64,000 nt of DNA from sequence record PZ379074.1; one strand, 5' to 3'. Shown here piece by piece: positions 10,440-51,443 of the stretch. The notes under the pieces were generated by a model. That model saw only the letters and a program-made list of their open reading frames with translations. It was not told where the DNA came from and searched no databases. The DNA is from a phage. Within the stretch, counting starts at the first letter, position 1; the number at the start of each line of letters is the position of its first letter. Both the position numbers and the translations under genes were made by a program.

Positions 10440-10800
10440 CCCTTACGGATGATACGTCATGGTTTTTTATCCGTATCAGTGTACAGCCCTTGCCGCGCCT
10501 GGCCTGTACATTAATCTTACGGATGATACGGATAAAACTGGGCACCATTATATATATAATTTGAAAAATTAATTAACTCCATTTTAAAAACATTTAAATT
10601 ATTTTTTTCATATCCTCATACTTATGTTAATTTATATATTTAACGTATCATCCGTAAGATATAAGTAAAAACAAAGACTTGCGGCAATACGGATGATACG
10701 TTATGATACGCTTCGACCAGCCAGCAGCGGCTAAGTCATTGATTTGCATAACAAGCAGCGAAAGGGATGGATTTCTTTTATCCGTATCAAACAGTACACC
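10440..10800. repeat. iteron-like repeat cluster, 13-bp motif TACGGATGATACG / CGTATCATCCGTA, flanking an AT-rich tract
   Basis: Full copies at 10444-10456, 10518-10530, 10688-10700 (+) and 10644-10656 (rc), plus partial copies; AT-rich tract 10545-10640. Confidence 0.7.
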
Positions 10801-10939
10801 ACGCACCACGGTCCGTTATCCATTCAGCACTATGATTTGTGTACGTTTATAGCCATAATGAACATCAATCTGCACTTGAATATAATGTCCATCCATTGTA
10901 TAATTCACACTATTAATTTGCACTATGGGATTTTGCACT

Positions 10940-11413
10940 ATGAGTCAAGATTATGTAGCGATGCCTGAAGACTTTGAAGACCCGCGATTTGCAGAGCACA
11001 ATCAGGCTTTATTCGATGAGTTCATTGACCTTGTTATTCAGGGCCATGACATGCGCGCAGCTTTTGCACTAGTATTTGGAATGGAAGTTGCAACGGATAA
11101 CTACACTGGCCAGCGAATCCTTTGCGCGCAACGCAATCCATACTACAAGATGCGCTTCAAAAAGCGTATGGAAGAGATGCCACTCAAGGATTTGTGGAGC
11201 GTAAAAGGTGCAATTCACAATTTGGTCAAGCTTGTGCGTGATCCAGAAGTCGCGGCGTCAGCCAAACTTAATGCTATTCGTGAACTGAATATCATCTACG
11301 GCATCACGATGATTGATGAAAACGGCAATAGTAAAATGGGCCGTTCCATGGACGATTTCTACAAGGATTTTGGAGAGGCGGCCAAAGAAGGTGAGCAATT
11401 CTCCCGCCACTAG
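10940..11413 (+). CDS. hypothetical protein (157 aa); speculative small-terminase/DNA-binding candidate
   Basis: ORF flanked on both sides by the ATTTGCACTAT array; alternative start ATG 10925; no motif recognised. Confidence 0.5.
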   Translation: MSQDYVAMPEDFEDPRFAEHNQALFDEFIDLVIQGHDMRAAFALVFGMEVATDNYTGQRILCAQRNPYYKMRFKKRMEEMPLKDLWSVKGAIHNLVKLVRDPEVAASAKLNAIRELNIIYGITMIDENGNSKMGRSMDDFYKDFGEAAKEGEQFSRH

Positions 11414-11432
11414 CCAATTTGCACTATAAAAC

Positions 11433-11466
11433 GGCCCTAGAACACATTTTCTCCACTTCTAGGGCC
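11433..11466 (+). other. hairpin downstream of 10940..11413 (weak terminator candidate)
   Basis: GGCCCTAGAA ... TTCTAGGGCC 10-bp inverted repeat with 14-nt loop; no U-tract. Confidence 0.3.
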
Positions 11467-11841
11467 ATCGGTAATACGACGGGGAAGGTTACAACCATAA
11501 ACGCGTTATAAAGTGTATTATTATAAGTCATCTTTTAGTCACTTTCCGTAACAATTTACGACCTTCAACCGTCCAATCGAACGACTCCACCAGCAGATTT
11601 GCACTATAACCTAAGACTACCCGACCTTTCTCGTTATCGACCCGCCAGCAAGTCTCGAATAGCATCTTATTTGCACTATTAACTATCGCCGCAACTCGCG
11701 TAGGATAAGCGCAATTTGCACTATGGTCATAAAGGGATAAGGTGCGACCACTTCCGATGGACAACGTAGCGATGAGAATGAGCGTATTCATAAGCCACCA
11801 ATTTGCACTATGAAAAGCGACCCCGAAGGGCCGCCATTCTA

Positions 11842-12468
11842 TTAGATAATCTGGAAGGTGTAGGACTTGTTGCCGAACTCAAAGTTCAAGCGCCCAGCTT
11901 CCTTAAGCTTCATGCGGAAGCGAATGTGTTTGCTATCCGGCAAGCCCAGCGCGGCGAACGCTACGCGGACCGATTTGAACTCGCCTACACCCTCGACCAT
12001 GACACCGTTACGGGTGAGACGCTTTTGCGCCACTTCCTTATTATCCCAGCTTTTTGCAATACCTTCGCTATTCGAACGGCGATGGGAAGGAGTTCCATTT
12101 TGCACTACGCAATTTGCACTATCGTTTAAACCGCTCTTAACGAAGGCTTCATATTCTTCGTCGGTCATCGCGTCGAGTTCTTCCTGGGTCGGCTCAGCCT
12201 TTTTAACGACCGCACGCGCCTTATGCGTTTTTACATCGCTGGACACTTCCTCGCGCGGCTTCGCGTCGGGAATGGGCGATTCGTTGGACGGCTCATCGAG
12301 CGCGTTTAAGGACTCGATTAACGCGATTACGCGAGTCTCGGCGGTCCGGCGGTCCGCGAATTTCTTAATCGGCTTCGAACCGGAATTTGCATTATAAAAT
12401 GCAACGAGGTCGGCGGTCTTAGTTGCGATAACGTCGCCGCTAGTAGAAAAGCGATTTAAGCTAACCAT
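11842..12468 (-). CDS. hypothetical protein (208 aa); member of TTATTATG-start module
   Basis: Same RBS context AGGAGTTTATTATGG as 12549..12863; 3' third overlaps the ATTTGCACTAT repeats. Confidence 0.45.
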   Translation of the reverse strand: MVSLNRFSTSGDVIATKTADLVAFYNANSGSKPIKKFADRRTAETRVIALIESLNALDEPSNESPIPDAKPREEVSSDVKTHKARAVVKKAEPTQEELDAMTDEEYEAFVKSGLNDSANCVVQNGTPSHRRSNSEGIAKSWDNKEVAQKRLTRNGVMVEGVGEFKSVRVAFAALGLPDSKHIRFRMKLKEAGRLNFEFGNKSYTFQII

Positions 12469-12548
12469 AATAAACTCCTATTTGTTAGGGCGCTAGGCGC
12501 GAAAGAATTTTATTAAAGCGCCGCGCACGACGCTCTAAAAATCCTCTC

Positions 12549-12863
12549 TTACTCTTCGTCGTCTTCGATTAATTCGAGGGCGAAGGCGTAAGCTTTGCTA
12601 TCGTAATTAACTAAAACGGCGAGTTCGAACTCGTTAATAAACGCCGTTTTACCGCATAAATTTAATTCCGCATCGACTTCGAAGAATCCGTTTTCGTCGC
12701 GCTCTAAGCGAGAAGCAGCGAGTTGCTCGATTACCGTCGCGTCGTTAATTTCTTCGCCTAAGCGAACGCCGGAGAATTTAGCGAGAATTTCGCCGTAAGT
12801 AAGCGTAACGCCCTGGACTTCGGCGGTTGCGTTTTCGAGGGTAAAGCGGGTAACGATAGCCAT
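12549..12863 (-). CDS. small highly acidic protein (104 aa)
   Basis: Preceded by sigma70-like promoter, conserved 5'UTR hairpin and AGGAGTTTATTATG start context; ends ...LELIEDDEE. Confidence 0.6.
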   Translation of the reverse strand: MAIVTRFTLENATAEVQGVTLTYGEILAKFSGVRLGEEINDATVIEQLAASRLERDENGFFEVDAELNLCGKTAFINEFELAVLVNYDSKAYAFALELIEDDEE

Positions 12864-12931
12864 AATAAACTCCTAGTTGGGAGAGGCGTTAACGACCTAT
12901 TCGTTAACTCATCCCGTCCCGATATGAGTAC

Positions 12932-12959
12932 ATTATAATATAGTGTAGAAAAAAGTAAA
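12932..12959 (-). promoter_or_regulatory. sigma70-like promoter (TTTACT-16-TATAAT) for 12863<-12549
   Basis: Reverse complement reads cTTTACT(16 nt)TATAAT; whole cassette near-identical to 13403-13430. Confidence 0.55.
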
Positions 12960-13003
12960 GCACTTTTTCGATAAAAATGCGATAAATTATTTTATCTTTT
13001 TTC

Positions 13004-13031
13004 TTTACTTCTTCGTACACTCGCGTATACT
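13004..13031 (+). promoter_or_regulatory. sigma70-like promoter (TTTACT-16-TATACT) for 13088..13390
   Basis: cTTTACTtcttcgtacactcgcgTATACT, back-to-back with divergent promoter at 12932-12959. Confidence 0.55.
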
Positions 13032-13087
13032 TGTTTATATCGAGACGGGCGATGTCCCTTTCTTCTACTAGCATCGGGAGCTTTATT

Positions 13088-13390
13088 ATGACTACTTTAA
13101 TCTCTTCCATCCTTACTTACGACGAAGACCGCTTAACCGTTCGCTCTCTTATCGCCGCCGTTAACGCGGAACTAGAATCTAGCGCCATTAAGGTCCGCGC
13201 GGTCGCCTTCATCGGCCTTTCCTTCGACGATATGAAGTATGCCGAACGTAGCGCTATCCGCTTCGCGAAGACCGACGACGAAGCCGTTACCCTTATCGAG
13301 ACGGTTACGCCGCGCGACGAAGCGTTAATTATCGTCGAGTATATCGACGTAGAAGGCGATAAGGCTTATAAATATTTTATCGCAGAATAA
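13088..13390 (+). CDS. small acidic protein (100 aa)
   Basis: Start set at ATG 13088 within GGGAGCTTTATTATG context (track ORF 13031..13390 starts earlier). Confidence 0.55.
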   Translation: MTTLISSILTYDEDRLTVRSLIAAVNAELESSAIKVRAVAFIGLSFDDMKYAERSAIRFAKTDDEAVTLIETVTPRDEALIIVEYIDVEGDKAYKYFIAE

Positions 13391-13402
13391 CGAAAAAGTG
13401 CT

Positions 13403-13430
13403 TTACTTCTTCGTACACTAAGACTATAAT
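13403..13430 (+). promoter_or_regulatory. sigma70-like promoter (TTTACT-16-TATAAT) for 13498..13788
   Basis: gtgcTTTACTtcttcgtacactaagacTATAATg; followed by hairpin GGTAGCGA-atagg-TCGCTACC and AGGAGATTATTATG. Confidence 0.55.
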
Positions 13431-13497
13431 GTTTTATATCGAGAGGGGATGAGGTAGCGAATAGGTCGCTACCCTCCCGACCAACTAGGAGATTATT

Positions 13498-13788
13498 ATG
13501 ATTACTTTAGCCGCTATCCGTAACGCTCGCGCCGAAACTTCCGAAAACTCTAACGTATTTGGCGAAAAACTTAAAAACGTTTATCTCTTTAACGTAGATG
13601 CGACTATCGAGGAGCTTCATAGTCCTATCGATTTTAGCGAATTTACGGAACTCGAAGAGGAAGATATTTCTACTTTCCGCGTTACTATCGAAGGCAAGGT
13701 TTATTTTGCTACGGAGTTCGGCGGCGAATATCTCGCGGTATCCGAAGGCGAAGGCCGTTACTCTTTCTTTAAAATCGTCTCCTTATAA
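13498..13788 (+). CDS. small acidic protein (96 aa)
   Basis: Own promoter cassette; followed by terminator. Confidence 0.6.
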   Translation: MITLAAIRNARAETSENSNVFGEKLKNVYLFNVDATIEELHSPIDFSEFTELEEEDISTFRVTIEGKVYFATEFGGEYLAVSEGEGRYSFFKIVSL

Positions 13789-13807
13789 TACCCTTCCGTT
13801 ACTAATA

Positions 13808-13833
13808 GGCCGCGCTTAGTCGCGGCTTTTCTT
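13808..13833 (+). terminator. rho-independent terminator
   Basis: GCCGCG-cttagt-CGCGGC followed by TTTTCTT, 20 nt after stop of 13498..13788. Confidence 0.55.
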
Positions 13834-14096
13834 CGTCCCTATCCCGATGCGCGTCTACGCGAAAACTCCTTTATCCTTCCCTTCGTCGTCGCATAATCTT
13901 CTTCGAGATGCTCCTTAGTTCGCATAACAGGTATTACGTTAAATGGAGAACATCGCGTAAGTCCTTGTTTTATATAGACACCTATATCGGACCGTTAGGG
14001 CGGGTCGCGTAAGTCGTTGTTTTATAAAGGCGCAAAACTTTCCCTTCGTTCCGAACTAAAACGAGGAATATGCCGACCCTTCGTCCGAAAATAGTA

Positions 14097-14470
14097 TGCA
14101 TGCGAAATTACATGCATCTAGAATAATCCCCACCGATATTATCCTACACGCAATCATTCGCTTTCGAATCATTATGCTTCATATTATTATGCATCGAATC
14201 ATTCTCTTTCGAATTGTAACGCTGGAAACTGTAACGGCGATTGATTATTGCGTTCGTGTGGTTTTTAGGGCATGGGTCTTTTGGTGCGTTTTGCTACTTG
14301 ATGAAATTTGCGGTACACTAATCAAAATACGACACATTTGGTCCACTAACTTTTCAAAGAAAAAGTCCTAGACAGTACCGTACTATTTTGCACCCACAGG
14401 AAATTTGCAGTACACTCCTGCGCGGCAGGCAAAATAAAGGGCCGCACTAAGCGACCCACTAAGCGACCCA
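14097..14470. repeat. non-coding repeat-rich region (short direct and inverted repeats)
   Basis: ATGCATG...CATGCAT inverted repeat near 14097; AATCATTC(G/T)CTTTCGAAT direct repeats near 14149 and 14201; (G/C)AGTACACT motifs near 14303 and 14400; tandem CACTAAGCGACCCA x2 at about 14445-14472. Confidence 0.5.
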
Positions 14471-14499: not shown

Positions 14500-14880
14500 C
14501 TATTCACTCTTATGGGCATCACCAAAGCCATCCGCAATCTGGCTGATCAATGATTCAATGGACACAGTTTTACCAATTGATCGAGCGGTAATAGCAAGCA
14601 TATTATCAATCAAACCACGATTGACTGCATATGTTCCAGGTTTTGACTCATCTTCAGAACAACCAAAAAGCTGGTCGCGCAGACTTTCAAGAGAACGCTC
14701 AATATTTTCCAACTTCTCTTCTAAATCGGATTGGCGACGTAAAACCCATGTCAAGTCACGGTTGCCAACTTCCAATCCATCAGAATAGCAAGGTGGAGCG
14801 TCAATTTTGATGCTGGAACCAAAAGCAATGCCGCTGCCTTTAGTATGTGTGTGGCTCATAGAATCATTTTTATTTGACAT
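14500..14880 (-). CDS. hypothetical protein (126 aa)
   Basis: Start set at internal ATG (MSNKND...) with AAAGG RBS; track ORF extends to 14946. Confidence 0.45.
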   Translation of the reverse strand: MSNKNDSMSHTHTKGSGIAFGSSIKIDAPPCYSDGLEVGNRDLTWVLRRQSDLEEKLENIERSLESLRDQLFGCSEDESKPGTYAVNRGLIDNMLAITARSIGKTVSIESLISQIADGFGDAHKSE

Positions 14881-14977
14881 ATCATTACCTTTAATATTTG
14901 GGTGATTAATAATAACTATAATAAAGCCGCATGGCGCGCCATTCAAATCGGTTTATTAATTGTAACGATTGGATTCA

Positions 14978-15172
14978 TCAATCGATACCAACTGAGCCGA
15001 TGTGCTGAAAGAATTCTGAATAAACTTCCTTCCAGTACTTGCGCGCAGCTTTCTGGGCTTGCCCTTTGCGCTTGTAGCTTTTACCTTGGAAAATGAAACG
15101 GTCGTTTGCTGCGTTATACTCCACCACACCTTCCAGCCATTGTAAGAATGCTACTGATTCATTTTTATTCAT
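14978..15172 (-). CDS. hypothetical protein (64 aa)
   Basis: ORF in minus-strand block. Confidence 0.4.
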   Translation of the reverse strand: MNKNESVAFLQWLEGVVEYNAANDRFIFQGKSYKRKGQAQKAARKYWKEVYSEFFQHIGSVGID

Positions 15173-15179
15173 GTTAACC

Positions 15180-15575
15180 TCAATATTTTAATAAGAAAGT
15201 ACCCAACCAACTTTCCTCAATCTCGCGGCCAGTAGCCACACGGTCGGTCTTGGCTATGGGTCTGGATTCGCCGCAGGGCAATCCGTCTTGTAGTTGTGTA
15301 CTATTGCCAATTCTCACCAGAACCTTTCCATCAGGGTCGATATAAGCGCGACAACCCATGATTTCGAGTCGTTGTAGACACTGGCGAATCGTTTTCAGCT
15401 TCTCACCGGACCGGATAGAGCGCGGTCGCGACCGCTGACCGTTTTTATTCACTGTACGCTTGAAAACCGGAATATCATTGGTGCGTTGCGGCTTGGGTCG
15501 GTAATAAGCCTCTTCGCCAGGAGTTGCACCTGGTGTCAGTTCGCGCTTAAGCGCCTTTTCAATATCAATGATCAT
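15180..15575 (-). CDS. hypothetical basic protein (131 aa)
   Basis: Start set at internal ATG (MIIDIEK...); track ORF extends to 15647 with Cys-rich leader. Confidence 0.4.
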   Translation of the reverse strand: MIIDIEKALKRELTPGATPGEEAYYRPKPQRTNDIPVFKRTVNKNGQRSRPRSIRSGEKLKTIRQCLQRLEIMGCRAYIDPDGKVLVRIGNSTQLQDGLPCGESRPIAKTDRVATGREIEESWLGTFLLKY

Positions 15576-15668
15576 AATTATGCTGCAGCAGCGTGAATGA
15601 TTGCATAAACAATTCCTAACATGGCGACAACACAAACCGTGCCCCAAAATGCAAAACGTCGTGATTCT

Positions 15669-15956
15669 TTATCCATTGGACCCTTCTCCACTGTTGATAT
15701 TATCCGAAATCAAAGTCGGAATTTCATCTTGAGTCCTTACCTTGTAGTGCGAAGGCATCTTACTTTCCAACAATGCCTGTTCAGCTTCGCCTTTTGTTTC
15801 AAACAAAGGAATGCACCAATCAACTGCATTTCCTTGCTCGTCGCCATTAACAGCTTTCAAGAATACAAGACGCTTGTCTGCAGGGTCGATGCCGCAAATT
15901 AAGTATTTAGGCAGCGCCTTTGCTTTTTGGGCCTTATCAATATCTTCAAATTTCAT
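15669..15956 (-). CDS. hypothetical protein (95 aa)
   Basis: ORF immediately downstream of tail fiber gene, same strand. Confidence 0.45.
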   Translation of the reverse strand: MKFEDIDKAQKAKALPKYLICGIDPADKRLVFLKAVNGDEQGNAVDWCIPLFETKGEAEQALLESKMPSHYKVRTQDEIPTLISDNINSGEGSNG

Positions 15957-16037
15957 AAATCACCTCACTTGTTAACGTATAATGAGTATAACTTAATATC
16001 GCATAAAGTAAAGGCGCTTTTCAGCGCCTTGAGTGAA

Positions 16038-18401
16038 TTATTTCGCTGCTTTTAGCGCGGCTATTTCTGCCTCTAGTGACTCGACCTTTTTCATCAACTC
16101 CTGCACCACGTGCATCGTATCCAAAAGCATAGGTGTGGTGTCAAGTTGCTTTTGCTCAACTTCGACACCTTCACTTGGATAGAATTTAATCGTTTTGACA
16201 TACAACGGGTCAATAGTCTCTGCCTGTTGAGCAATAATCCCTCTTCTCACCCTTTCCTTTTCATCATTGTTGTAGATGAAAGTTACATACTCCAGCAATG
16301 AAAGGTTGCTCCATGCTTTTTCTACCGTTCCTGGTTGTATGTCATGCTTCAAATTCTCATCAGAGATGGCATTCTTCTGAAGAGTGAAGAAACTGTCAGA
16401 GCCTGGAACGGATACTGAAAAGAATACGTCCTCTACGTTAGGCTGGATTTGCATCTTTGTTTGATACTTTGCATCATCATCACCAGAAGCAATCCACGTA
16501 GCTTGCGCAAAACTTCCATTGTTGTTGTGAATCATGCCATGGTGAACAGTAGTTGCGTATCCTGTATTAACAGATTGACTACCACTGATAAGGCTGTTGA
16601 AGCCATAGTTCTGACCAAGACCCTGACGAACCATCGAGAAGGTGCCTGACTTTGATCCTGTTTCAGCCCACGACATTAACGTTCCGTACCGTGCCGCAAA
16701 TCGGTCAGACCATAATAGACCGTCATCAGTCAAGCTGATGTCTTTTTCTTTACCTGCAGTGACGTTTTTTACTGATAACTGGGTGGAATATGACCCACCC
16801 ATCGTTGCTGATGTGTAAACCGTTCCTTGCGCTTCGATGGCAGTTCCAATCTTGTATTCAACGCTTACTTTCCCTGATTCAACTCTCGTTCCGTCTATCG
16901 GTCTGGTGGCGTCACCGTTGATAACACTCCAAGACGTTTTCGCGGCAACAAATCCGCCCGATGCACGAATCACCCAAACGCCGATGAAGTTGCGCGGCAA
17001 AATGTTATCCGAAACGCCATATCTGCCATAAGTGCCATTCGAATAACTTGCCCTAAAGTTCAAGGTGTTTAAACGGCCTGGTGTTGCACCAGTACCGCCT
17101 GGTATCGTTTCACCAGCCCCTTGAGGGTATAAGTCATTGTTTGTGTAAAATGCGCCTCTTACGGCTGTACCGAAAATTTGCGCGTAAGTCCCTTGAGACA
17201 CGCCTGCCGCAGAACCTGCAATGTCTGGCGCAGCCGCTTCATAAATTGTCCCGTCATTGGAAGATGTTCCGCCATCACCTCGCCCAAAAAGCTCCTTGAT
17301 TGATCCTGTCTGAACACCGTTTCTGTCCGGCACACGGAATGTAGTTGTGCCATTACCCAAAGAATATTTACCACGCTTTTGGGCGTCAGCAAGCCAGTCA
17401 GCATCCGCAATAGGTGATAACATTTGCGCGTATGCCCAAAGTTCAGGCCAGTCAGCGCGATTCAGCAATTGTCCGTCTGCAACGACTTCATACGGTTGAA
17501 TATATGCACGACTGTCTCGCAAGTGGAAGTCGCCGACGCCATAGTTCATAACACCGTTCATGCTTGGGCCAACGGTGCCTGTGTTCACTAAGTTCTCAAC
17601 CCAACGCTTGGTTGCAGCATCATAATCGTTTACCGGATCACCAGCAAGCGGAGTCGACCCTTGTGGACGAATATTCAACCAAGCTTGAGCATTGTCTGCT
17701 GATCCTGTGCCGCCCATGGAAGTTGGGACGATGCTTTGATCAGCAACAGGGCCAAATCCAAATGCATCTTTCATTCCTTGAATGGTTGTCTGCCCCGTTC
17801 CGCCATTTACAATTGGAATCGTGCTTTGCGTACTATACATCTGCACCCAATCCGACCAGGATGATGAGCCAGCATTGTATAGCCTTTGGTATATGGCGTT
17901 GATCCAATAAGGCGTATATCTTTGGACGCAACTTTCTCCTGCGACGCCAGTCTTGTAGACTTCAAGAATGCCAGCTTGTGAAACTGGATAGTTCAAAGCC
18001 GATGATGCGCCAGCATTTGCTGATTGATGATATTGGCCAAACCATGAACCAGTCAAAGCATTGAGATTTATTCCGTTAGGAATCTCCCCAAAGTTTCGGA
18101 CGGTGCCCGTCAAAGTCGCGGCAGTAGTTCGAATGGAAAGCATATCGCCAGCCGCCCATGCACGCGCTGCAGTTCCTTCTTGTGCACGCTGCACGGTCAG
18201 AACGTTTCCAACCACGGCTGTTACTGTGACGATTTCGAATTGGAGGCCTGTTGCAGCGTCGACGATTGTCGCCACTACACGCTCGTTTGCGCCCAAGGTC
18301 GGAAAGCCCGACCCTGAGCGAATTGTGATGGTGGTGTCTGAAGTCGTGGTTGGCTGAGCCAGTGCGACCTCAAAGTTGTTTTTGAATATTAGCCTTGGCA
18401 T
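16038..18401 (-). CDS. tail fiber / tailspike with C-terminal intramolecular chaperone (peptidase S74-like) domain
   Basis: 787 aa, Gly/Ser/Thr/Asn-rich body; C-terminus has SDENLK (Ser...Lys, S74-like) and coiled-coil tail. Confidence 0.7.
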   Translation of the reverse strand: MPRLIFKNNFEVALAQPTTTSDTTITIRSGSGFPTLGANERVVATIVDAATGLQFEIVTVTAVVGNVLTVQRAQEGTAARAWAAGDMLSIRTTAATLTGTVRNFGEIPNGINLNALTGSWFGQYHQSANAGASSALNYPVSQAGILEVYKTGVAGESCVQRYTPYWINAIYQRLYNAGSSSWSDWVQMYSTQSTIPIVNGGTGQTTIQGMKDAFGFGPVADQSIVPTSMGGTGSADNAQAWLNIRPQGSTPLAGDPVNDYDAATKRWVENLVNTGTVGPSMNGVMNYGVGDFHLRDSRAYIQPYEVVADGQLLNRADWPELWAYAQMLSPIADADWLADAQKRGKYSLGNGTTTFRVPDRNGVQTGSIKELFGRGDGGTSSNDGTIYEAAAPDIAGSAAGVSQGTYAQIFGTAVRGAFYTNNDLYPQGAGETIPGGTGATPGRLNTLNFRASYSNGTYGRYGVSDNILPRNFIGVWVIRASGGFVAAKTSWSVINGDATRPIDGTRVESGKVSVEYKIGTAIEAQGTVYTSATMGGSYSTQLSVKNVTAGKEKDISLTDDGLLWSDRFAARYGTLMSWAETGSKSGTFSMVRQGLGQNYGFNSLISGSQSVNTGYATTVHHGMIHNNNGSFAQATWIASGDDDAKYQTKMQIQPNVEDVFFSVSVPGSDSFFTLQKNAISDENLKHDIQPGTVEKAWSNLSLLEYVTFIYNNDEKERVRRGIIAQQAETIDPLYVKTIKFYPSEGVEVEQKQLDTTPMLLDTMHVVQELMKKVESLEAEIAALKAAK

Positions 18402-18439
18402 TTTACGGTCCTCGTTTTGTCGACAACCGTATTATAACC

Positions 18440-18781
18440 TTAATTTCTTTTGAGAGGAATATGACGGTTGCTGTCATTATTTGGTTTAATAATGAGCATA
18501 AAAACGATTAGAAAGATGATGGCTGATATACTTAATTCAATCAGCGCGGCTTGAGATATGGATTGATCTTCATGATACTGCTTTTGCATTTCTGCTTTCT
18601 TCTGAGCGCAAACTTCAGGTGATATATAATCGCCTTTTGAGTTTCCATAATAAATCTCGCCATTCTCAGAAATAAGTCTGCCGCAAATATCAGTATCGGC
18701 CTTTGCGCTTGACATCATAATAACGGTGCCGATGATAGCAGCGATAGTCCAGATTAACAGTTGTGATAAAGTGTTGTTCAT
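18440..18781 (-). CDS. small membrane protein (113 aa): N-terminal signal/anchor plus C-terminal TM
   Basis: Start set at internal ATG (MNNTLSQLLIWTIAAIIGTVIMM...); C-terminal hydrophobic segment. Confidence 0.45.
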   Translation of the reverse strand: MNNTLSQLLIWTIAAIIGTVIMMSSAKADTDICGRLISENGEIYYGNSKGDYISPEVCAQKKAEMQKQYHEDQSISQAALIELSISAIIFLIVFMLIIKPNNDSNRHIPLKRN

Positions 18782-18977
18782 GATAACCTCTTTAAATTCC
18801 CTTCCCATTTCGGGAAGGGCGATAATTATTTTACGCGAAAGAATAGGCGCGTGCCACACAGCGAGTCCCAACGGCCTTCGCCATCCCATACCGACCCAAC
18901 GCCAGCGGTGATGACACCAGCAGAATTGGCGGCATTGGCCCAGGCAAGACGTTTCAACTTCCAACTGCACCAACGAT

Positions 18978-19229
18978 TCACAGTTCGTCTCCAGATTGCA
19001 AAATCAGACCTGTATAGAGGATTGCCAGAGCTAAAGGCGCACCGCTGCCAGCCTCTCTATTCTCTTTAATTTGAAGCGTGTCCTTAAGGAATTGCAATTG
19101 AACGTTAAATTCATTTTCAATCCCAAGCACCACGGCCAATTCTTTTACAGAATCTGCATATGCCTTATCTAGCACTTCTTTTGGTACTTTTAAAGTTAAT
19201 TCACTTCCCATTTTCTTTCCACTCCACAA
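18978..19229 (-). CDS. hypothetical protein (83 aa)
   Basis: ORF in minus-strand block. Confidence 0.4.
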   Translation of the reverse strand: MWSGKKMGSELTLKVPKEVLDKAYADSVKELAVVLGIENEFNVQLQFLKDTLQIKENREAGSGAPLALAILYTGLILQSGDEL

Positions 19230-19422
19230 ATGTGCTGCCGCTTGTTTCTCTGTTTAGCAGGTATCTGCCGCGCATTCCATGAAGGCTGAATTCAACCGTC
19301 GATGGATTAGATTTTGAAAGCCACATCGCTTGACCGTCGAATGGACCGCCTACGCATGTATATTTCGCTTTTGGCTCACTCCTTTTGGGACGTTTTGCCC
19401 GCTCTTTGATTGATAGTCTCAT
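19201..19422 (-). CDS. hypothetical basic protein (73 aa)
   Basis: ORF in minus-strand block. Confidence 0.4.
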   Translation of the reverse strand: MRLSIKERAKRPKRSEPKAKYTCVGGPFDGQAMWLSKSNPSTVEFSLHGMRGRYLLNRETSGSTFVEWKENGK

Positions 19423-19637
19423 CAGTCTTCACCTTGAGATTCCAGACAAGTAAGGACAAGCCACGTCATCGGAAGAATCAAAACCAGAGAAATGAGGGAC
19501 CAGATAGACCAGCACAAGATGACAGACTTGAATGTGTGAACGTCGCCAAACGCAGCAGTAAAACAGAATCCCATTACAAATGCAATAGCCGTGGAATGGT
19601 TGTCTATGGCTTTGATGGCGCGGTCGATGAGTTTCAT
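19422..19637 (-). CDS. small two-TM membrane protein (71 aa); holin-like topology
   Basis: Two hydrophobic segments and charged C-terminus (ESQGED); first gene of leftward block. Confidence 0.4.
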   Translation of the reverse strand: MKLIDRAIKAIDNHSTAIAFVMGFCFTAAFGDVHTFKSVILCWSIWSLISLVLILPMTWLVLTCLESQGED

Positions 19638-19719
19638 ATTACCTCCGGTTTTGAGTTAATATGATTATAACGCAGACTTTCAGAAAGGCAAACTTTTTGT
19701 GAATTTTAATCAAAAAAAT

Positions 19720-19738
19720 GGCCAGAAAAAATCTGGCC
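19720..19738. other. GC hairpin between A/T runs in divergent intergenic region
   Basis: GGCCAG-aaaaaat-CTGGCC flanked by A-runs; on minus strand it reads as hairpin plus T-tract. Confidence 0.35.
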
Positions 19739-19815
19739 GAAAAGATCACCCTTTATCCACTACTAAGCTGGAATCATAATTTTACTTGATATAGCTGTCG
19801 CAAGCAAACTATAAT

Positions 19816-21932: not shown

Positions 21933-22094
21933 TTCAATCTCCTTTCGTTTGGTTAACTAAAATATAACTCAAAATGATACAAAAGCAAAATATTTTATGA
22001 ACTATTTATGATCACCATACATATCATTTGCTTACAAACACATGAATATTTATAATATAGATTGATTCCCTTTCACTGTCAGGTGGCGTTAACA

Positions 22095-43177: not shown

Positions 43178-45916
43178 ATGCAAAAGTTTGACACAAACCT
43201 GTTGCAAAACCTTAAGTGGATGCAGAACAATGCGCCAAACATCACATCTTTGGTGCAAAAGAAAAGTGACTGGTATGAAAGATACCAAGATCAGTTTTGG
43301 ACTGACTGGTACAATAACATTTTTAACATTGACACTTGTGATGCAATGGGCATCTATATTTGGTGTGACATCCTATGCATACCAAGGGATTTTGTTGACT
43401 TAAGCAACTATGAGCACAACTGGGCGTTTGGACCCACACGCGACAACTTCGAAGGGCCGGAAAATATCGGCGGCAACTTCTTTGGTGCTGGCGGAAAGGT
43501 TGTGAAAAACATCGAAGAAGCCCGCATCCTTCTGAAGCTTCGTTATCTGACGCTTACAAGTGATGGTCGCATAGAAAGCATCAACCGTATGCTTAAGTGG
43601 ATTTTCAACCGTGGAGAAGATTGGGATTACTCTTCATCGCGCTACGCATATGTTACAGATAATACTCAAGGCGCGGTGTCTTCTTCTGAAGCAACAAACG
43701 GCTCATTCCTTCTGTACGACTGGCAGGGGTCAACTGAGATTCAGCACGATTATAAGCAGATACTTTTAAGCCATGGCAACAATGCCGGACTGACCATCAG
43801 CGGAGTATCAGGCACCGTGTCACGGATGGCGCATCCAGATTGGTACTCATGGGGGAATGGTTCCGGCACAGGCCTTGTCGGTGGCGACACCAGACAGTAC
43901 GGCGGCCCTGATTACTATGGACAGTTGTGTGGCGATTACCCAGGTGAGGCAATAGAGAATTTTGCCAACGCAGTAAGGGTCGTCAAGACGGCTTCAAGCG
44001 GTGAGCCTGTGTATTCTTTGGCTAATAATCCAAGCGCACAGTCAATTGCCCTTCCTTCGCAGGCTGGCGTTAACGTTTGCTATAGCTTCTACATAAAGGT
44101 GCTTTCTGAAAACGTCGCTTCTGTTTCTGTTACAGAGAATAGTGATGCATCGAGCAATGGAAAGCTGTTTGACCCCGTCACTGGCCAGTTCAACTTGGAC
44201 CCGTCATTGAGCTATTTCATCAAAGGCAAATTCGATGGAGTAAGAAGGGAATCAAACCGTGGTGGCATAAAAGCAATTGGCGGCGATTGGTATCGAATCT
44301 GGATTGTAGAACAAACTGCGAACGCGACAGCTGGGGTAAACACAAGCTTTTCAATAGAGTTGAAGGCGACTGCCGCTGGATCAACTCAGACTCGTGAATT
44401 GCCTGAAGGGTCTGATGCACTTCTTTTTGGATACTCGATTTGCGTCTGCGACCCTGTTCAGAATCCAAATGGACCTGAGCCTTATTTCTATGGGACTCAA
44501 AATCCTCCTGCAGATGGAACGGCAATCCTGTCTGTTACGGCAGGAACGCTCAACAACATATCTTGCGCAAACGGTCCGTTGACCACAAGGGATGGCGTGG
44601 TAGGTGAATCATTCATGCAGCCTGGTTCATCGCTTGCATACTCTGGTTCAATCGGCGGCTACCCGTACCCAGGAAACGCAACATTGATTGCAGAGACAGA
44701 TGGAATCAGACGCTCATGGAACGTTAGCAGGCTTGATGGAGTACCGCCGCCGCCGACCGCTGACTATTACATGGAATATGTCATCGGGCCTTATTTCGCC
44801 AACAACTTATCCGACAACTTTAAGACGCTAGTTGGCGACAGGAATGAAGGATTCTTGCCAGCAAATGCCGGAATACGTTGGCAGCTTTACCAAGAAGTCG
44901 CAGACTTATCTGATATTGATTTGACCGTCAGCAACATAACAGACACGCGAGTAGGATTCGAAACGGAAGGTGTCGCATGGATTAACACTGACGGCATCAT
45001 CAGAGTTGGCGGCATAAACGAGTGGCCGTTGAACAACTTCAAAGGTGTTATACGACAGCTTGAATCTTTGAAAGGTGTGAACCAAGTTATCGACGGCGCA
45101 CTTGTCAACGACTATTCAATCTCAAAAGCATCAAGAGATGATTTTGGTCGTGAAATCCCACGTGCCGCGATCACAAACTACTGGCGATACACACAGCCCA
45201 ATGACGGCACATCTTTTGGAAATATCGTCAAGGACGGAGATAACACGGTAACGGCGACGCCAATCAGCGGTGTGCCCAACCAGTTCCCATCATTCAAGCT
45301 TTCCGCTACAATAGGGACTGTGCCAGCGTCCGGCTATGCACGTGCTGTACTTGCTACTAAATACACTGGCAACCTGACTGGTCCTTTGTCATTTATCGCA
45401 ATAGTTAAAAACAACACGGTAAACGGTCAAAAACTTTTCGTAACCGTACCGGATGGTATGGGCGGCTATATCCCTAAATTCTACAGCATAGGCGCAGGTG
45501 ATTTGCAACGTATCGAAATTGACCTTGCCGCTGAGATTGTTGCAGGAACGACTTGGGATGGTTCGACAGGTGGAATCAGCATTGGTTTGATATCAGGGAA
45601 GGATTTGCCGACCGAAGTTGGTACGACTCTTGAACTTGATATTTTAAGCTTGATGCTTGTTTCTGGTAATACGATGAATGCGCTTGCGATTTCAACAAGC
45701 GAAGACTTTGCAAAGAAAACTGCAACTTCTATATACATCAAAAACCCAGGGTCACTGGCGACTGGAGTTCAATTGATAGCTTCGAATGGGGATGTTGTAG
45801 CGACAGTAAACTTTCCAAGAAGTGCTGCTGGCGGTTATGTTTCAAGCATGAATATAACTGACTTAACTGGTGATTGGGCATCAACCCTTTTATCAAAAAT
45901 TAAATACATCGTGTAG
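43178..45916 (+). CDS. large baseplate wedge / tail fiber protein (912 aa)
   Basis: Trp/Asn-rich N-terminal domain, long Gly/Ser/Thr/Asn-rich body; directly upstream of fiber gene. Confidence 0.55.
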   Translation: MQKFDTNLLQNLKWMQNNAPNITSLVQKKSDWYERYQDQFWTDWYNNIFNIDTCDAMGIYIWCDILCIPRDFVDLSNYEHNWAFGPTRDNFEGPENIGGNFFGAGGKVVKNIEEARILLKLRYLTLTSDGRIESINRMLKWIFNRGEDWDYSSSRYAYVTDNTQGAVSSSEATNGSFLLYDWQGSTEIQHDYKQILLSHGNNAGLTISGVSGTVSRMAHPDWYSWGNGSGTGLVGGDTRQYGGPDYYGQLCGDYPGEAIENFANAVRVVKTASSGEPVYSLANNPSAQSIALPSQAGVNVCYSFYIKVLSENVASVSVTENSDASSNGKLFDPVTGQFNLDPSLSYFIKGKFDGVRRESNRGGIKAIGGDWYRIWIVEQTANATAGVNTSFSIELKATAAGSTQTRELPEGSDALLFGYSICVCDPVQNPNGPEPYFYGTQNPPADGTAILSVTAGTLNNISCANGPLTTRDGVVGESFMQPGSSLAYSGSIGGYPYPGNATLIAETDGIRRSWNVSRLDGVPPPPTADYYMEYVIGPYFANNLSDNFKTLVGDRNEGFLPANAGIRWQLYQEVADLSDIDLTVSNITDTRVGFETEGVAWINTDGIIRVGGINEWPLNNFKGVIRQLESLKGVNQVIDGALVNDYSISKASRDDFGREIPRAAITNYWRYTQPNDGTSFGNIVKDGDNTVTATPISGVPNQFPSFKLSATIGTVPASGYARAVLATKYTGNLTGPLSFIAIVKNNTVNGQKLFVTVPDGMGGYIPKFYSIGAGDLQRIEIDLAAEIVAGTTWDGSTGGISIGLISGKDLPTEVGTTLELDILSLMLVSGNTMNALAISTSEDFAKKTATSIYIKNPGSLATGVQLIASNGDVVATVNFPRSAAGGYVSSMNITDLTGDWASTLLSKIKYIV

Positions 45917-45926: not shown

Positions 45927-47714
45927 ATGCCAACACTTATTAACAGACCTTTCGCGCAAAGCGGTGATGTATCCGTGGTGCCGGATGCAAGCCCAAGCGG
46001 TTATGTAAACTTCCAGCGCGGCTACACCCCTGACTATGCGCTTGCTCTGGAGGCTGGAAACGTCGCCGCGAAAGCTGTTGAGCGCGAATCGATGAACTGG
46101 TTGCTGAATTTGATCACAGACAACCTTATGTTTATTCAAGATCATGGCGCTCAACAATATTTCTCTTCTGACTTGAAGCCTGATGGATACCCGAAAAATG
46201 CCATCGTTGTCAGCAACTCTGGAACGCCTTCAGCACCTGAGTGGCGCATCTTTCAGAGCGTGGTCGACGGCAACACAAGCGCCGTACCAGCTAACGGAGA
46301 AACGGAATCTTGGCAGGAATTAACACTGCCCAGCGAAGCGCGAAAATACATTCCGATGCCTGCTGGCGGCGATGCGCAAAACCCGTACTTTGTTCGCGGA
46401 TTGATTTCAAGTTTTGTGGACTTCGATAACATCACGACATCCACAACTATCGTCATTCAATCCGATGCCGTCGCCGCTCTGTGCTCTAACATCCCGAATG
46501 CGGTTGGCGCAACGAAGGTTGCAGGTCGACTGCAGGCCTGCGCTTGGCAGGTCGATGCGCAAACCTTTGCCTTGCAGCAATATACATCAATGAATGGCTA
46601 TTTGTTTACTCGCTCTTATACTTCTGGTGCTTGGAGTGCTTGGATTCAAAATGCCACTGTTCAAGATGTGCAAATTGGAACGCCGAATCTTGCATCAGGT
46701 AAAGGTGCGCAAGATATAATTCTCACCGTTCCAGCAGGGTATTCATGGCCTCCGTCAGCAGGTAGTCGCCTGACAATCGTCAATGATGTAACGACTACCG
46801 GACCTGTCACCGTGACCATTGGTGTAAACAAAGTTGCCGTTCTTGGATTCGACGGCGGCGAGTTGCCAGCTGGCGCTATCGTAGGATTGCTGCCATTCAC
46901 CATCATTTATGACGGAACTGTTTGGCGTCTCCTTCAGGCGTTTGGCGCGGCGCAAATCGGCGTTGATGCTACTGAGCCGCAACAGTTTGTTACAAAGCGC
47001 CAACTCGATGCTTTGGCTGCGAAGTTGATCACTATGGGTGATGTGTTCGAAGTCGGTGAGACTCGATTCCTCACCAACGGGACCAACCCGAATACTAAAC
47101 TGGGCGCTTACGGCCAGGTATGGACACGACTGCCTGATAACATGGTGATTCGCACGTCCGGCGCTGCACGAAACGGTCTTGATACAGGCGGAGCAGACTC
47201 TGTTACCCTTACCGCCGCCATGCTTCCTCTCCACAATCACAGCGTGAACATTACCACGCGACAAAGTGGTCCATGGTCCAATACCACTGGAGACGCAGGC
47301 AACCACAACCACACAGGCGATACCAGTCAAAACGGCGCTCACGTGCACGGAATGGACACGGCAGGCAACCACCACCATGACAGTAGCTGGGGTGAAGCCA
47401 ATACTAGCGATGCGCGGTACGGCGTTTATGATGGGACACACAACAACTTCGGAAGTCGCAAAGGCGGCGACTGGGATAACTACAAATACAATACGTCAAC
47501 TAATGGCAACCACGTTCATAATATTCAATCTTCTGGATCACACACCCATGGGTTGAATATAAATTACGCTGGCAATCACAGCCACAGCTATACCCTTCCC
47601 GCTCACACTCACGATGTGGTCGGTAACACTGGCAATGCAGGGCAGTCGGTGCCAACGGCTGTTGCGACTTTGCCGCGATACGTTGTTTTGAATGGCTGGT
47701 ACAGAAGCGCATAA
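45927..47714 (+). CDS. tail fiber protein with His-rich HxH region
   Basis: N-terminus PTLINRPFAQSGDVSVVPDASPSGYVNFQRGYTPDY; C-terminal region with many HxH motifs (NHNHTGD, HVHGMD, NHHHD, HTHGLN, HSHSY, HTHDV). Confidence 0.7.
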   Translation: MPTLINRPFAQSGDVSVVPDASPSGYVNFQRGYTPDYALALEAGNVAAKAVERESMNWLLNLITDNLMFIQDHGAQQYFSSDLKPDGYPKNAIVVSNSGTPSAPEWRIFQSVVDGNTSAVPANGETESWQELTLPSEARKYIPMPAGGDAQNPYFVRGLISSFVDFDNITTSTTIVIQSDAVAALCSNIPNAVGATKVAGRLQACAWQVDAQTFALQQYTSMNGYLFTRSYTSGAWSAWIQNATVQDVQIGTPNLASGKGAQDIILTVPAGYSWPPSAGSRLTIVNDVTTTGPVTVTIGVNKVAVLGFDGGELPAGAIVGLLPFTIIYDGTVWRLLQAFGAAQIGVDATEPQQFVTKRQLDALAAKLITMGDVFEVGETRFLTNGTNPNTKLGAYGQVWTRLPDNMVIRTSGAARNGLDTGGADSVTLTAAMLPLHNHSVNITTRQSGPWSNTTGDAGNHNHTGDTSQNGAHVHGMDTAGNHHHDSSWGEANTSDARYGVYDGTHNNFGSRKGGDWDNYKYNTSTNGNHVHNIQSSGSHTHGLNINYAGNHSHSYTLPAHTHDVVGNTGNAGQSVPTAVATLPRYVVLNGWYRSA

Positions 47715-47722: not shown

Positions 47723-48367
47723 ATGATTAATGCAAACGTAATATCTAAAGGGACAGGATGCAGCACGGATATTGCAGAAAATTGGGTGGACCCTTTCAAG
47801 CAGGCTTGTGAGCACTACGGAATAAAAAGCAAGAATGCCATTGCAGCATTCCTTGCAAACGTAGGAGTAGAGACGGGCGGCTTGAAGACCTTTGTGGAAA
47901 ATCTCAACTACTCTGCACAGGGACTTGCCAATACATGGCCTAGTCGTTACAGCGTCAACGGTCGTGCTGGAAGCGCCCCGAACTCATTGGCCCTGTCGAT
48001 TGCCCGTAAACCTGTGGAAATCGCCAATAATACATATGCAAACCGCATGGGCAACGGTTCAGTAGCATCTGGCGACGGTTGGAAGTACCGTGGCCGTGGT
48101 GCCATTCAGCTGACTGGAAAGGCCAACTATGCGGAATATACGCGTCAATCAGGCTATGATGCATTGAACAATCCTGATATTCTGACTGAACCAAAATACA
48201 TTGCTGACAGCGCGGCATGGTTCTTTAAGAATAGCGGCTGTATTCCTCTTGCGGATGCAGGAAATTTTGATTCAACCGTTAAGCGGATTAACGGGGCCGC
48301 GCCGAACGCGGCAAACCACGGTGAGTTGCGAAGAAAGCGTTACAAAGATGCACTAGCAGTTATGTAA
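47723..48367 (+). CDS. endolysin, glycoside hydrolase family 19-like
   Basis: 214 aa; GH19-type signature YRGRGAIQLTGKANY; last gene of plus-strand late block. Confidence 0.8.
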   Translation: MINANVISKGTGCSTDIAENWVDPFKQACEHYGIKSKNAIAAFLANVGVETGGLKTFVENLNYSAQGLANTWPSRYSVNGRAGSAPNSLALSIARKPVEIANNTYANRMGNGSVASGDGWKYRGRGAIQLTGKANYAEYTRQSGYDALNNPDILTEPKYIADSAAWFFKNSGCIPLADAGNFDSTVKRINGAAPNAANHGELRRKRYKDALAVM

Positions 48368-48368
48368 G

Positions 48369-48396
48369 AAAAAGGCCCATATGGGCCTTTGTTTAT
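48369..48396. terminator. bidirectional rho-independent terminator between convergent genes
   Basis: Perfect palindrome AAAGGCCCATATGGGCCTTT flanked by A-run and T-run. Confidence 0.6.
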
Positions 48397-48623
48397 TTTA
48401 CGGCTTCAACCTGGACGGGCGGAGCGGAACTTGTATCAATGTCTGGTAAGTCGAAATAATACCCCGCCATACCAATTGCACCCACAATCGCGGCCCGTGC
48501 CACCTTGTTGCTAATTGACTCCCCAATAAGCTTTACCAACAGGGACAAGATTTGAGACGTCAAAGCCTTTTTCAGCCTTTTGTTTTCTTCCAAATCTTTC
48601 TGCATAACTACCACCCATGTCAA
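48393..48623 (-). CDS. hypothetical small protein (76 aa) with one hydrophobic segment
   Basis: Start overlaps stop of upstream gene; AAIVGAIGMAGYYF segment. Confidence 0.4.
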   Translation of the reverse strand: MTWVVVMQKDLEENKRLKKALTSQILSLLVKLIGESISNKVARAAIVGAIGMAGYYFDLPDIDTSSAPPVQVEAVK

Positions 48624-50927: not shown

Positions 50928-51443
50928 TTATTTTTCCTTTGATGCATTGAATTGATCGATTTTTATTTTAGCCTGATTATAAGTATCAATCAAGCTATTA
51001 ACTTTCTCTTTTAATCGATTTGTTTCTGCGGCGAACTGAACAAGAAATCTGACATCCTCTTCTGATAGTCCACAGTTTCCTTCTGGGATAGAGAGGCGTC
51101 CAGTGGTCGCAGAGTCGGGCACACTCCTGAGTAACTCACGGGAGCAGCTGAGTTGCTCGCGCAACTTGACATTCCCAGACTTGTAACGAGCAATAGTGTC
51201 ATCAGCAACCAGTTGCGCTTCCTGGCGACCCTTCTCATATGCCGATGCCGATTCAACCTGTAAAGTTGCAATTTGCTCTTCGAGTGCATTTATCTTGTCC
51301 TTACGCTCATTAAGCGATGTCAGATATTGATTATCCTTGGCCAGTGATGCGTTGGTTTGCTGCAGGTCTTCAACGTATGATCCAGCGGCAAACGCGCCAA
51401 CAAGGGCCAGAATCTTCAGGAGCGGTACAATTCTTTCTATCAT
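50928..51443 (-). CDS. i-spanin (Rz-like) candidate: N-terminal TM plus coiled coil
   Basis: 171 aa; TM ILALVGAFAAGSY then coiled-coil region; contains embedded +1-frame lipoprotein ORF. Confidence 0.45.
   Translation of the reverse strand: MIERIVPLLKILALVGAFAAGSYVEDLQQTNASLAKDNQYLTSLNERKDKINALEEQIATLQVESASAYEKGRQEAQLVADDTIARYKSGNVKLREQLSCSRELLRSVPDSATTGRLSIPEGNCGLSEEDVRFLVQFAAETNRLKEKVNSLIDTYNQAKIKIDQFNASKEK
51011..51238 (-). CDS. o-spanin (Rz1-like) candidate embedded within Rz-like gene in another frame
   Basis: Signal MRRVARKRNWLLMTLLLVTSLGMSSC with lipobox-like MSSC; Pro-containing mature region; start set at internal Met. Confidence 0.3.
   Translation of the reverse strand: MRRVARKRNWLLMTLLLVTSLGMSSCASNSAAPVSYSGVCPTLRPLDASLSQKETVDYQKRMSDFLFSSPQKQID

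Follow-up and report, generated by a model that had tools for sequence, protein, structure and literature searches.

A modular tail fiber with a C-terminal S74 chaperone ends a probable leftward transcription unit upstream of the large terminase gene in a Wifcevirus-type phage

The window analysed here is the whole 64,000-nucleotide stretch of phage record PZ379074.1, and the subject is a block of minus-strand genes at positions 14500-19637 that holds one large tail fiber gene and a series of small open reading frames (ORFs). The block very probably consists of two leftward units, the first of which encodes five small conserved proteins and a modular, host-range-determining lateral fiber with an S74 chaperone. 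The window derives from an Escherichia coli myovirus of the Wifcevirus type and shows about 90% nucleotide identity over a 6-kb region to about 30 E. coli and Shigella myoviruses, including TH35, kaset, WFC, WFH, ECML-117, FEC19, vB_Eco4M-7, Mansfield and the BASEL phages Bas98-101. In the records of these relatives the large ORF is annotated as a tail fiber and the small ORFs as hypothetical. By sequence, the fiber is an ortholog of the published T-shaped, dual-receptor-binding Wifcevirus fiber; both the fiber type and the genus are already described, and the findings extend published work rather than reveal a new kind of system. What is added is the two-unit layout, a three-module mosaic in the fiber and a set of constrained membrane-protein genes found in this genus only.

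The fiber ORF (787 amino acids (aa), 16038..18401 (-)) has small minus-strand ORFs on either side. Pfam Peptidase_S74 (PF13884) was matched at residues 680-734 (E 1.3e-9, 38.6 bits against a cutoff of 22), and PHROG 6921 ('tail fiber') spanned most of the protein (E 4e-214). Orthologs are named 'pyocin knob domain-containing S74 family peptidase' by NCBI, and the Mansfield record cites SSF88874 for its copy. On these matches the protein is identified as a tail fiber with a C-terminal S74 intramolecular chaperone. A preliminary description of the window, made from the letters and their ORFs, had proposed a 787-aa minus-strand fiber with an S74-like C-terminal domain, lying about 25 kb from the genes at 43178-47714 and grouped with small membrane proteins. 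The ORF and both family matches bear this out, the distance is 24.8 kb, and hydropathy analysis, from which the membrane segments of the small proteins were taken, placed transmembrane (TM) segments in the 71-, 113- and 32-aa products of the block.

For the module map, the window protein was aligned with 11 GenBank orthologs. Residues 1-100 (18102..18401 (-)) form a conserved N-terminal anchor, 95-99% identical in the genus and presumed to attach the fiber to the baseplate; in sequence comparison, residues 4-97 match the N-terminus of the fiber 8jov_1 of the Protein Data Bank (PDB), an entry (8JOV) that is probably the tail of the Ralstonia podophage GP4. Residues 101-200 (17802..18101 (-)) form a pyocin-knob-like domain, here called variable module V1, which is of the WFC/ECML-117-like allele and ranges from 47 to 98% identity. 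The conserved shaft and collar that follow (residues 201-375, 17277..17801 (-), 86-98% identical) are common to T5-like LtfA and phiEco32-like fibers. Residues 376-475 (16977..17276 (-)) make up the hypervariable module V2, again of the WFC/ECML-117-like allele and with a mean identity of 29-51%; V2 is probably the variable part of what the literature calls the 'Gp12-like RBD1' (RBD, receptor-binding domain). A conserved stretch (residues 476-500 (-)) separates V2 from the hypervariable distal tip V3 (residues 501-679, 16365..16901 (-)), which is of the TH35/kaset-like allele and corresponds to the literature's 'T5-like RBD2'. The S74 intramolecular chaperone/auto-processing (ICA) domain, with Ser680, Lys685 and a helix at 755-786, closes the protein (residues 680-787 and stop, 16038..16364 (-)).

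The similarity to the R2-type pyocin fiber (6CL6/6CT8) was found in sequence and in fold over residues ~101-190: residues 101-189 match the knob (6ct8/6cl6) with E values of 3e-6 to 4e-8, and the R2 fiber was also returned for the knob region by Foldseek (E 5e-4). Unlike the R2 pyocin, the window fiber has a single knob near its N-terminus, just after the anchor, and this knob is strongly variable between phages; the R2 knobs precede a C-terminal receptor-binding foot. The AlphaFold model of the fiber was of the monomer only and poor (mean pLDDT 48; pLDDT, predicted local distance difference test), as expected for an intertwined trimer. It was confident only at residues 103-190 (the knob, 65-86), 495-566 and 680-787, the second of these being a beta domain of partial confidence; residues 191-494 were unconfident and the tip (567-679) scored below 50. 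Foldseek returned matches only for confident parts, namely the ICA domain of MyRF, the K1F endosialidase chaperone and the R2 pyocin fiber.

The body of the fiber is related to a described lateral fiber. Residues 234-565 align to residues 540-870 of LtfA of phage DT57C (PDB 8HQZ chain d, PMC10713586; phmmer E 3.5e-116), the central region is 62% identical to DT57C ltfA by tblastn (E 1e-109), and the chaperone domains of the two proteins align as well. This central module was present in 231 phage records covering all three morphotypes. The LtfA/LtfB lateral fibers of DT57C are required on hosts that produce O-antigen (Ayala et al. 2023, PMC10713586). Unlike the window fiber, LtfA belongs to a siphovirus, where its N-terminus inserts into the LtfC collar, and it has LtfB as a branch; 8HQZ resolves only the N-terminal part of LtfA, so that the shared region has no solved coordinates.

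Among the GenBank orthologs the modules of the fiber assort independently. The knob and the insert of the window protein are of the WFC/ECML-117 type (88-100% and 64-96% identity, respectively), and its tip and chaperone (residues 501-787) are of the TH35/kaset type (92-100%). Over the full length, no phage in the GenBank set exceeded 83% identity (TH35), and 98% matches were found in assemblies; the window fiber thus reads as a new recombinant allele. Its ratio of nonsynonymous to synonymous polymorphism (pN/pS), calculated like those of the other genes between the window and 11 relatives, was 0.39.

These features can be set against the published Wifcevirus fiber. In the available text of Humolli 2025 (PMC11990801), Wifceviruses are described as having 'two sets of tail fibers', of which one is conserved and encoded in the tail locus; the other is predicted to be 'T-shaped' with dual RBDs, and to run from a baseplate anchor at the N-terminus through RBD1 (Gp12-like) and RBD2 (T5-like) to an intramolecular chaperone at the C-terminus. 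The same text describes horizontal exchange of these RBDs with Tequintavirus and Gordonclarkvirinae and reports Bas98-101 to be fully dependent on the O16 O-antigen. Like 'Gp114' of ManiWeber/Bas99 (tag Bas99_0109), the window fiber is encoded at the end of the leftward unit that lies upstream of the large terminase gene (TerL), with 97-100% identity over the N-terminal 100 aa, a length within 777-790 aa and an S74 chaperone at the end. The published pattern of a conserved N-terminus and variable RBDs was reproduced in the window alignment; unlike the published description, which in its available text makes no mention of it, the alignment adds the knob region (101-200) as a third independently assorting variable module. 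By analogy with these O-antigen-dependent fibers the window fiber most likely binds O-antigen, the specificity of this particular allele being an extrapolation. A UDP-galactopyranose mutase, an unusual sugar-nucleotide enzyme for a lytic phage with an O-antigen receptor, is annotated in relatives (Mansfield gene 072; ~62400-63400 (-) in the window) among replication and nucleotide-metabolism genes.

Mass spectrometry (MS) of purified virions, one of the checks proposed for the fiber at the outset, is already available for orthologs. In CsCl-purified preparations of vB_Eco4M-7 and ECML-117, the fiber ortholog was found in both (Necel 2020, PMC7048862). In vB_Eco4M-7 it scored higher than any other protein, with 34 peptides covering 80%, and in ECML-117 it was represented by 18 peptides covering 37%.

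The C-terminal domain carries the marks of a self-processing chaperone. The SDENLK motif in which a Ser...Lys arrangement had been noted corresponds to Ser680...Lys685 and aligns with the Ser and Lys of two PDB fibers (8hqz_d and 8jov_1). Dyad conservation was scored in 34 fiber homologs, from which a profile was also built; Ser680 and Lys685 are invariant in 34/34, although the surrounding tip is hypervariable. With the C-terminal domain, this profile matched the MyRF ICA domain (7dc3, 9e-10), S16 gp37 (6f45, 4.5e-6) and, weakly, phi29 gp12 (3gud, 0.06). Residues 680-787 were modelled with pLDDT values of 67-88 and, in agreement with the coiled-coil tail that had been proposed, a C-terminal helix was predicted at 755-786 (83-88). 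By Foldseek the domain matched 7dc3 (E 1.2e-5; TM-score (template modelling score) 0.55-0.59 on the target) and 3gw6 (E 4e-4). In Pfam, fold and profile comparisons the domain thus resembles the ICA domains of K1F endosialidase (3GW6), MyRF (7DC3), S16 gp37 (6F45) and phi29 gp12 (3GUD), with a Ser-x4-Lys dyad at the domain start and a long C-terminal helix. Self-cleavage and release are established for these four proteins; for the window family we infer autocleavage from the conserved dyad, with a predicted cleavage site between Ile679 and Ser680.

The arrangement of genes and signals indicates two differently controlled leftward units, with the fiber as the last gene of unit 1; promoter and leader conservation was compared in 12 phages. 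Unit 1 would start at a sigma-70-type promoter, TTGCCT-16-TATAAT (19664..19691 (-)), which is followed by GGAGG and the ATG of a 71-aa gene. The promoter and the 5' untranslated region are essentially invariant in the 12 phages, whether an extra gene or a terminator lies upstream. In the window, a terminator-like hairpin with a 7-bp GC stem and a U tract is found at 19720..19738 (-) (-14.4 kcal/mol, z -2.8); it is also present in relatives without the extra upstream gene, and may insulate the fiber unit from leftward transcription from beyond TerL. About half of the relatives, including Mansfield, ECML-117, vB_Eco4M-7, Bas100, TH35 and TH32, have an additional 76-aa gene upstream of the 71-aa gene, at the place of the window hairpin (between 19637 and 19849; 9102-9332, 6042-6272 and 5958-6188 in three records). 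The product of this 76-aa gene (vB_Eco4M-7_32, PI34_gp30) had a high MS score in purified phage (PMC7048862).

Within unit 1 the first four genes overlap by 1, 11 and 4 nt in turn. A GC-rich hairpin, CCCTTCCC-loop-GGGAAGGG, lies between the fourth and fifth genes (18799..18819 (-)); its stem is invariant and its loop variable in the 12 phages, only a weak U tract follows it, and it may be an attenuator or an element of RNA processing or stability rather than a full terminator. A perfect TATAAT at 18430..18435 (-), 27 nt upstream of the fiber ATG and within a 70-nt stretch invariant in the 12 phages, is a possible internal promoter for the fiber gene; the extended motif around it was sought elsewhere in the genome and did not recur. 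Right after the fiber stop codon, a conserved intrinsic terminator (16011..16030 (-); -13.6 kcal/mol, z -3.1), which is annotated in WFC, would end unit 1. Unit 2 is preceded by a promoter-like site of another class, TTTACT-16-TATACT (15985..16012 (-)), and is followed by a terminator at 14439..14457 (-), some 160 bp away from the mapped inner boundary of the direct terminal repeat.

Both promoter classes recur in the genome. Class A (TTGCYT-N16/17-TATAAT) has 5 exact genome-wide matches against 0.03 expected, of which four precede unit 1 (19664-19691), the portal gene (22028-22056), the head protease/capsid genes (26760-26788) and a baseplate gene (41122-41150); the fifth (32714-32741 (-)) is antisense inside the tail genes. 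Class B (TTTACT-N16/17-TATAMT) has 5 exact genome-wide matches against 0.01 expected: three in the terminal repeat (12932-12959, 13004-13031 and 13402-13430), one before unit 2 (15985-16012) and one (49194-49221) before a unit next to the endolysin gene that encodes a 180-aa and a 70-aa protein. By promoter class the fiber unit would group with the morphogenesis operons. The possibility that the block consists of early genes, suggested by its position against the terminal repeat, was set aside on this comparison, which groups unit 1 with structural operons instead.

Several results weigh against this picture or narrow it. The promoter classes were chosen post hoc, after the data had been viewed, and say nothing certain on timing. 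T5 pb1, whose chaperone domain had been proposed for alignment together with that of the endosialidases, gave no match to the fiber in fold or profile searches; the endosialidase chaperone (3gw6) was matched in fold. The Pfam Collar match at residues 345-362 was below threshold (E 0.11, 12.9 bits against 24). No usable model was obtained for the trimeric parts of the fiber (monomer pLDDT 48), and the T shape and both RBD folds are taken from the literature. The last point concerns release of the chaperone. Tryptic peptides of the vB_Eco4M-7 and ECML-117 fibers were derived and then sought in the supplementary peptide tables of Necel 2020 (Suppl. Table S2 for vB_Eco4M-7). For vB_Eco4M-7, the tables contain six peptides from the C-terminal side of the predicted cleavage Ser, with counts and intensities equal to those of fiber-body peptides: IEVLEAEIAALK was represented by 223 peptide-spectrum matches (PSMs), SVNTPGVAAALHHEAILALMDR by 187 PSMs and ITDPLVK by an intensity of 8.1e9, as compared with 158 PSMs and an intensity of 5.8e9 for the body peptide TTAATLTGTVR.

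In ECML-117, 0/8 of the chaperone peptides sought were found and the peptide just before the site was found; the site-spanning peptide, which is too short to inform, was not seen in the published tables. The CsCl material of vB_Eco4M-7 also held non-structural proteins, and the score of the fiber was above those of the capsid and sheath proteins; free fiber precursor may for these reasons have co-purified. The abundance of the vB_Eco4M-7 peptides means either that the domain is retained or that free fiber or precursor co-purifies in large amounts, and the published tables are ambiguous in this respect, leaving release of the chaperone domain as a deduction from the conserved dyad.

The five small genes ahead of the fiber in unit 1 are all on the minus strand. 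The first (19422..19637 (-)) encodes the 71-aa membrane protein, with a strong TM segment at 39-57/64, a weaker one at 17-31 and an acidic end (pN/pS 0.034). It is followed by genes for a 73-aa basic soluble protein (19201..19422 (-); PHROG 12090; pN/pS 0.058), a 77-aa protein with a short C-terminal hydrophobic stretch at 57-71 (18978..19211 (-); pN/pS 0.14) and a 51-aa Trp/Gly-rich protein with a GTG start in the window (18826..18981 (-); pN/pS 0.11). The fifth (18440..18781 (-); pN/pS 0.038) encodes a 113-aa bitopic membrane protein with a signal/TM segment at 8-26, a TM segment at 80-98 and a basic cytoplasmic tail; an AKA|D site of the signal-peptidase-I type and a periplasmic segment of about 50 aa with 2 Cys are predicted, and a Phobius note in the vB_Eco4M-7 record gives the same membrane topology for the ortholog.

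Unit 2 contains genes for a variable 95-aa soluble protein (15669..15956 (-)), a 32-aa single-TM peptide (15578..15676 (-); pN/pS 0.18), a 131-aa basic soluble protein (15180..15575 (-)), a 64-aa protein (14978..15172 (-); PHROG 20882) whose length differs among relatives and, as its last gene, a 126-aa protein (14500..14880 (-)). Orthologs of the 95-aa protein (vB_Eco4M-7_26 and PI34_gp23) were detected by MS in phage preparations (PMC7048862).

The small membrane-protein genes are real, as judged from pN/pS values of 0.03-0.18 across the 11 relatives (0.018 for TerL, for comparison), and purifying selection is strong on the 71-, 73- and 113-aa genes. The 71-aa protein was found in 29 Wifcevirus records only, at 95-100% identity, and the 113-aa protein likewise, at 96-100%. 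An exhaustive HMMER search of 1.84 billion representatives with the 71-aa protein found only its own cluster, and word-indexed homolog searches with the 113- and 73-aa proteins gave only near-identical Wifcevirus copies. Searches of Pfam, PHROGs, NCBIfam and PADLOC with the small proteins at relaxed thresholds yielded only TM-driven matches of 12-15 bits (DUF1422, KwaA). The AlphaFold model of the 113-aa protein (pLDDT 64.5) consists of two helices and a small hairpin and had no significant match in BFVD (best E 0.09). Neither the 71-aa nor the 113-aa protein is among the proteins detected by MS in purified phage in the tables of PMC7048862.

All small proteins of unit 1 are 95-100% identical while the fiber modules fall to 12-50%. 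A neighbouring gene that co-varies with any fiber module was sought and none was found; the 95-aa gene of unit 2 is variable, but its alleles assort independently of the fiber tip. This lack of co-variation speaks against receptor-specific blockers and allele-specific chaperones and, because the membrane proteins do not track the fiber alleles, they would act on something conserved and not on the receptor.

Two other functions of the block have to be weighed against this account, one for the fiber and one for its membrane-protein neighbours. An alternative identity for the 787-aa protein, that of a tailspike with endosialidase-like depolymerase activity instead of a fiber without enzymatic activity, is suggested by the Pfam name 'Chaperone of endosialidase' and by the SP13 record, which labels the ortholog endo-N-acetylneuraminidase. 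The match is, however, limited to the C-terminal chaperone domain; no sialidase, beta-helix lyase or hydrolase domain was found in Pfam, PHROGs or NCBIfam, fold searches matched nothing but chaperone and pyocin-knob domains, and the body shares homology with LtfA, a lateral fiber that is non-enzymatic; Humolli 2025 (PMC11990801) also describes the T-shaped fibers as without enzymatic properties. The depolymerase reading was rejected on these grounds and is very improbable. Exclusion genes commonly adjoin the gene of a receptor-binding protein, as T5 llp does that of pb5, and the small inner-membrane proteins, encoded beside such a gene, could provide superinfection exclusion of the T4 Imm/Sp type, which blocks DNA entry or cell-wall penetration and does not mask the receptor. 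Their invariance across fiber alleles would fit a target downstream of receptor binding, and they are genus-restricted orphans. Against this, homology to Imm, Sp, Llp or Cor is lacking, a lipobox is absent from the 113-aa protein, PADLOC gave nothing beyond a 13-bit TM-only match, and unit 1 has the promoter class of structural operons, whereas the exclusion genes known from lytic phages would be expected to be early; such a role is quite unlikely. Receptor-specific exclusion is disfavoured in particular, as the membrane proteins stay invariant while the fiber modules vary: neither a lipobox Cys, in the 113-aa protein, nor co-variation with the fiber, as would mark masking of the Llp/Cor type, was found.

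A role as the holin of the phage is also unlikely, if a little less so. The endolysin (47723..48367) is of the GH19 type and has neither a signal nor a signal-anchor-release (SAR) segment, so that a holin is required; the relatives annotate spanins and no holin, and the 71- and/or 113-aa proteins could be this missing holin, or a holin/antiholin pair timing lysis for the cytoplasmic endolysin. In favour of this, apart from the spanins and a 180-aa protein with a signal peptide, no real gene product in the window but the 71-, 113- and 32-aa proteins is clearly hydrophobic, the cytoplasmic tail of the 113-aa protein is basic as in holins, the promoter class of unit 1 is that of late-type structural operons, lysis genes are already scattered in the genome, and purifying selection on the 71- and 113-aa genes is very strong. 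The 71-aa protein had indeed been called a two-TM holin-like protein; the strong TM segment (39-57) and a weaker one (17-31) stand, but the holin part is weak. No holin family was matched in Pfam or PHROGs even at E<=5, or in NCBIfam; the C-terminus is short and acidic (ESQGED, net charge -3 over 6 residues), where holins usually have basic charges, and the first TM segment is weak. The gene lies 28 kb from the endolysin and is unlinked to it or to the spanins (~50928..51443), a linkage that is usual and not obligatory. A 70-aa ORF (48393..48605 (-)), convergent with the endolysin gene, was identified as a homolog of PA1-LRP of Pantoea phage PA1 (52% identity over 74%; 44% over 91% to the copy of phage Kyle), an identity confirmed with the published primers; like PA1-LRP, it is convergent next to a homologous endolysin. 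PA1-LRP was toxic alone and enhanced endolysin-dependent killing, in long overexpression assays only (PMC11538084), and with assays of 24 h this evidence is itself modest. The 70-aa ORF is unrelated to the 71-aa protein and has a weak hydrophobic segment; by analogy it is the better placed and better supported lysis candidate, and the best current holin-like candidate in the genus. It is co-oriented with the gene of the 180-aa protein (48620-49162 (-)), which has an N-terminal signal/TM segment, behind TTTACT-16-TATACT at 49221. That the 71/113-aa pair forms a genus-specific holin/antiholin lysis clock run from the promoter class of the virion genes is rather unlikely; if true, it would fill the absence of a recognisable Wifcevirus holin and could bear on the unusually short reported latent period. 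Our best single guess for the membrane proteins is a role in envelope or lysis control other than that of a canonical holin.

The main tail locus bears on the number of fibers. At least three fiber-type genes, forming a branched or dual receptor-binding apparatus, had been proposed, with the locus at 43178-47714 supplying the others. Its 595-aa product (45927..47714) matches the solved tail fiber gp47 of 9b45. The N-terminal ~186 aa of its 912-aa product (43178..45916 (+)) match the baseplate wedge/triplex proteins gp46 (9b45) and E217 gp45 (8env); the protein also matched Pfam DUF2612 and PHROG 4797 and no fiber family, a 'spike fiber' domain being below threshold (19.5 bits against 36). On these matches the 912-aa protein does not count as a third fiber. 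The count of three was thus not upheld, while two different fibers, one of them T-shaped with dual RBDs in the literature, agree with the proposal; sequence matches give the two fibers of the literature and a wedge protein whose C-terminal extension is long. Solved Pbunavirus-type wedge proteins (9b45 gp46, E217 gp45) have about 500 aa; the extension of the 912-aa homolog, some 700 aa long, could be a docking platform for the additional T-shaped fiber.

The fiber block lies between the left direct terminal repeat and TerL. When Mansfield and WFC were mapped onto the window, the left physical end of the genome fell at ~10581; the direct terminal repeat, which is annotated in Mansfield, extends over 3.7 kb (~10581-14280), with its inner edge at ~14280. 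It holds several genes, including one annotated as the small terminase subunit in Mansfield, which would be in two copies per virion DNA if the repeat is as predicted, and which is parted from the large-subunit gene by the whole fiber block. The TerL ORF called mechanically starts at 19816 (+) (486 aa), and relatives annotate an ATG at 19849 (475 aa); the latter is probably the true start, since the TerL promoter has its -10 hexamer at 19810-19815, directly against 19816. The phage PB1 belongs to the sister genus Pbunavirus; its TerL gene likewise has a leftward small-gene block upstream, in which there is no fiber, a layout consistent with addition of the fiber at this position in the Wifcevirus lineage.

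Taken together, transcription of unit 1, beginning at the 19691 promoter and ending at the 16011 terminator, would yield five tightly packed small proteins, at least two of them in the inner membrane, and then the fiber, the operon structure and timing being read from the signals. The conserved N-terminal anchor would dock the fiber on the baseplate, the conserved shaft and collar would carry the hypervariable insert (the literature's 'Gp12-like' RBD1), and the distal tip would serve as RBD2. The chaperone would drive trimerisation and folding of the tip, and would then release itself by a cut at Ser680 that uses Lys685. The variable modules would be swapped by recombination with the fibers of T5-like, phiEco32-like and other coliphages, and the second, conserved fiber (45927..47714) would come from the main tail locus. 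The fiber is a host-range determinant of a genus considered for E. coli O157 biocontrol and therapy, and its layout, a fixed anchor and three swappable modules, gives clear junctions for the engineering of host range.

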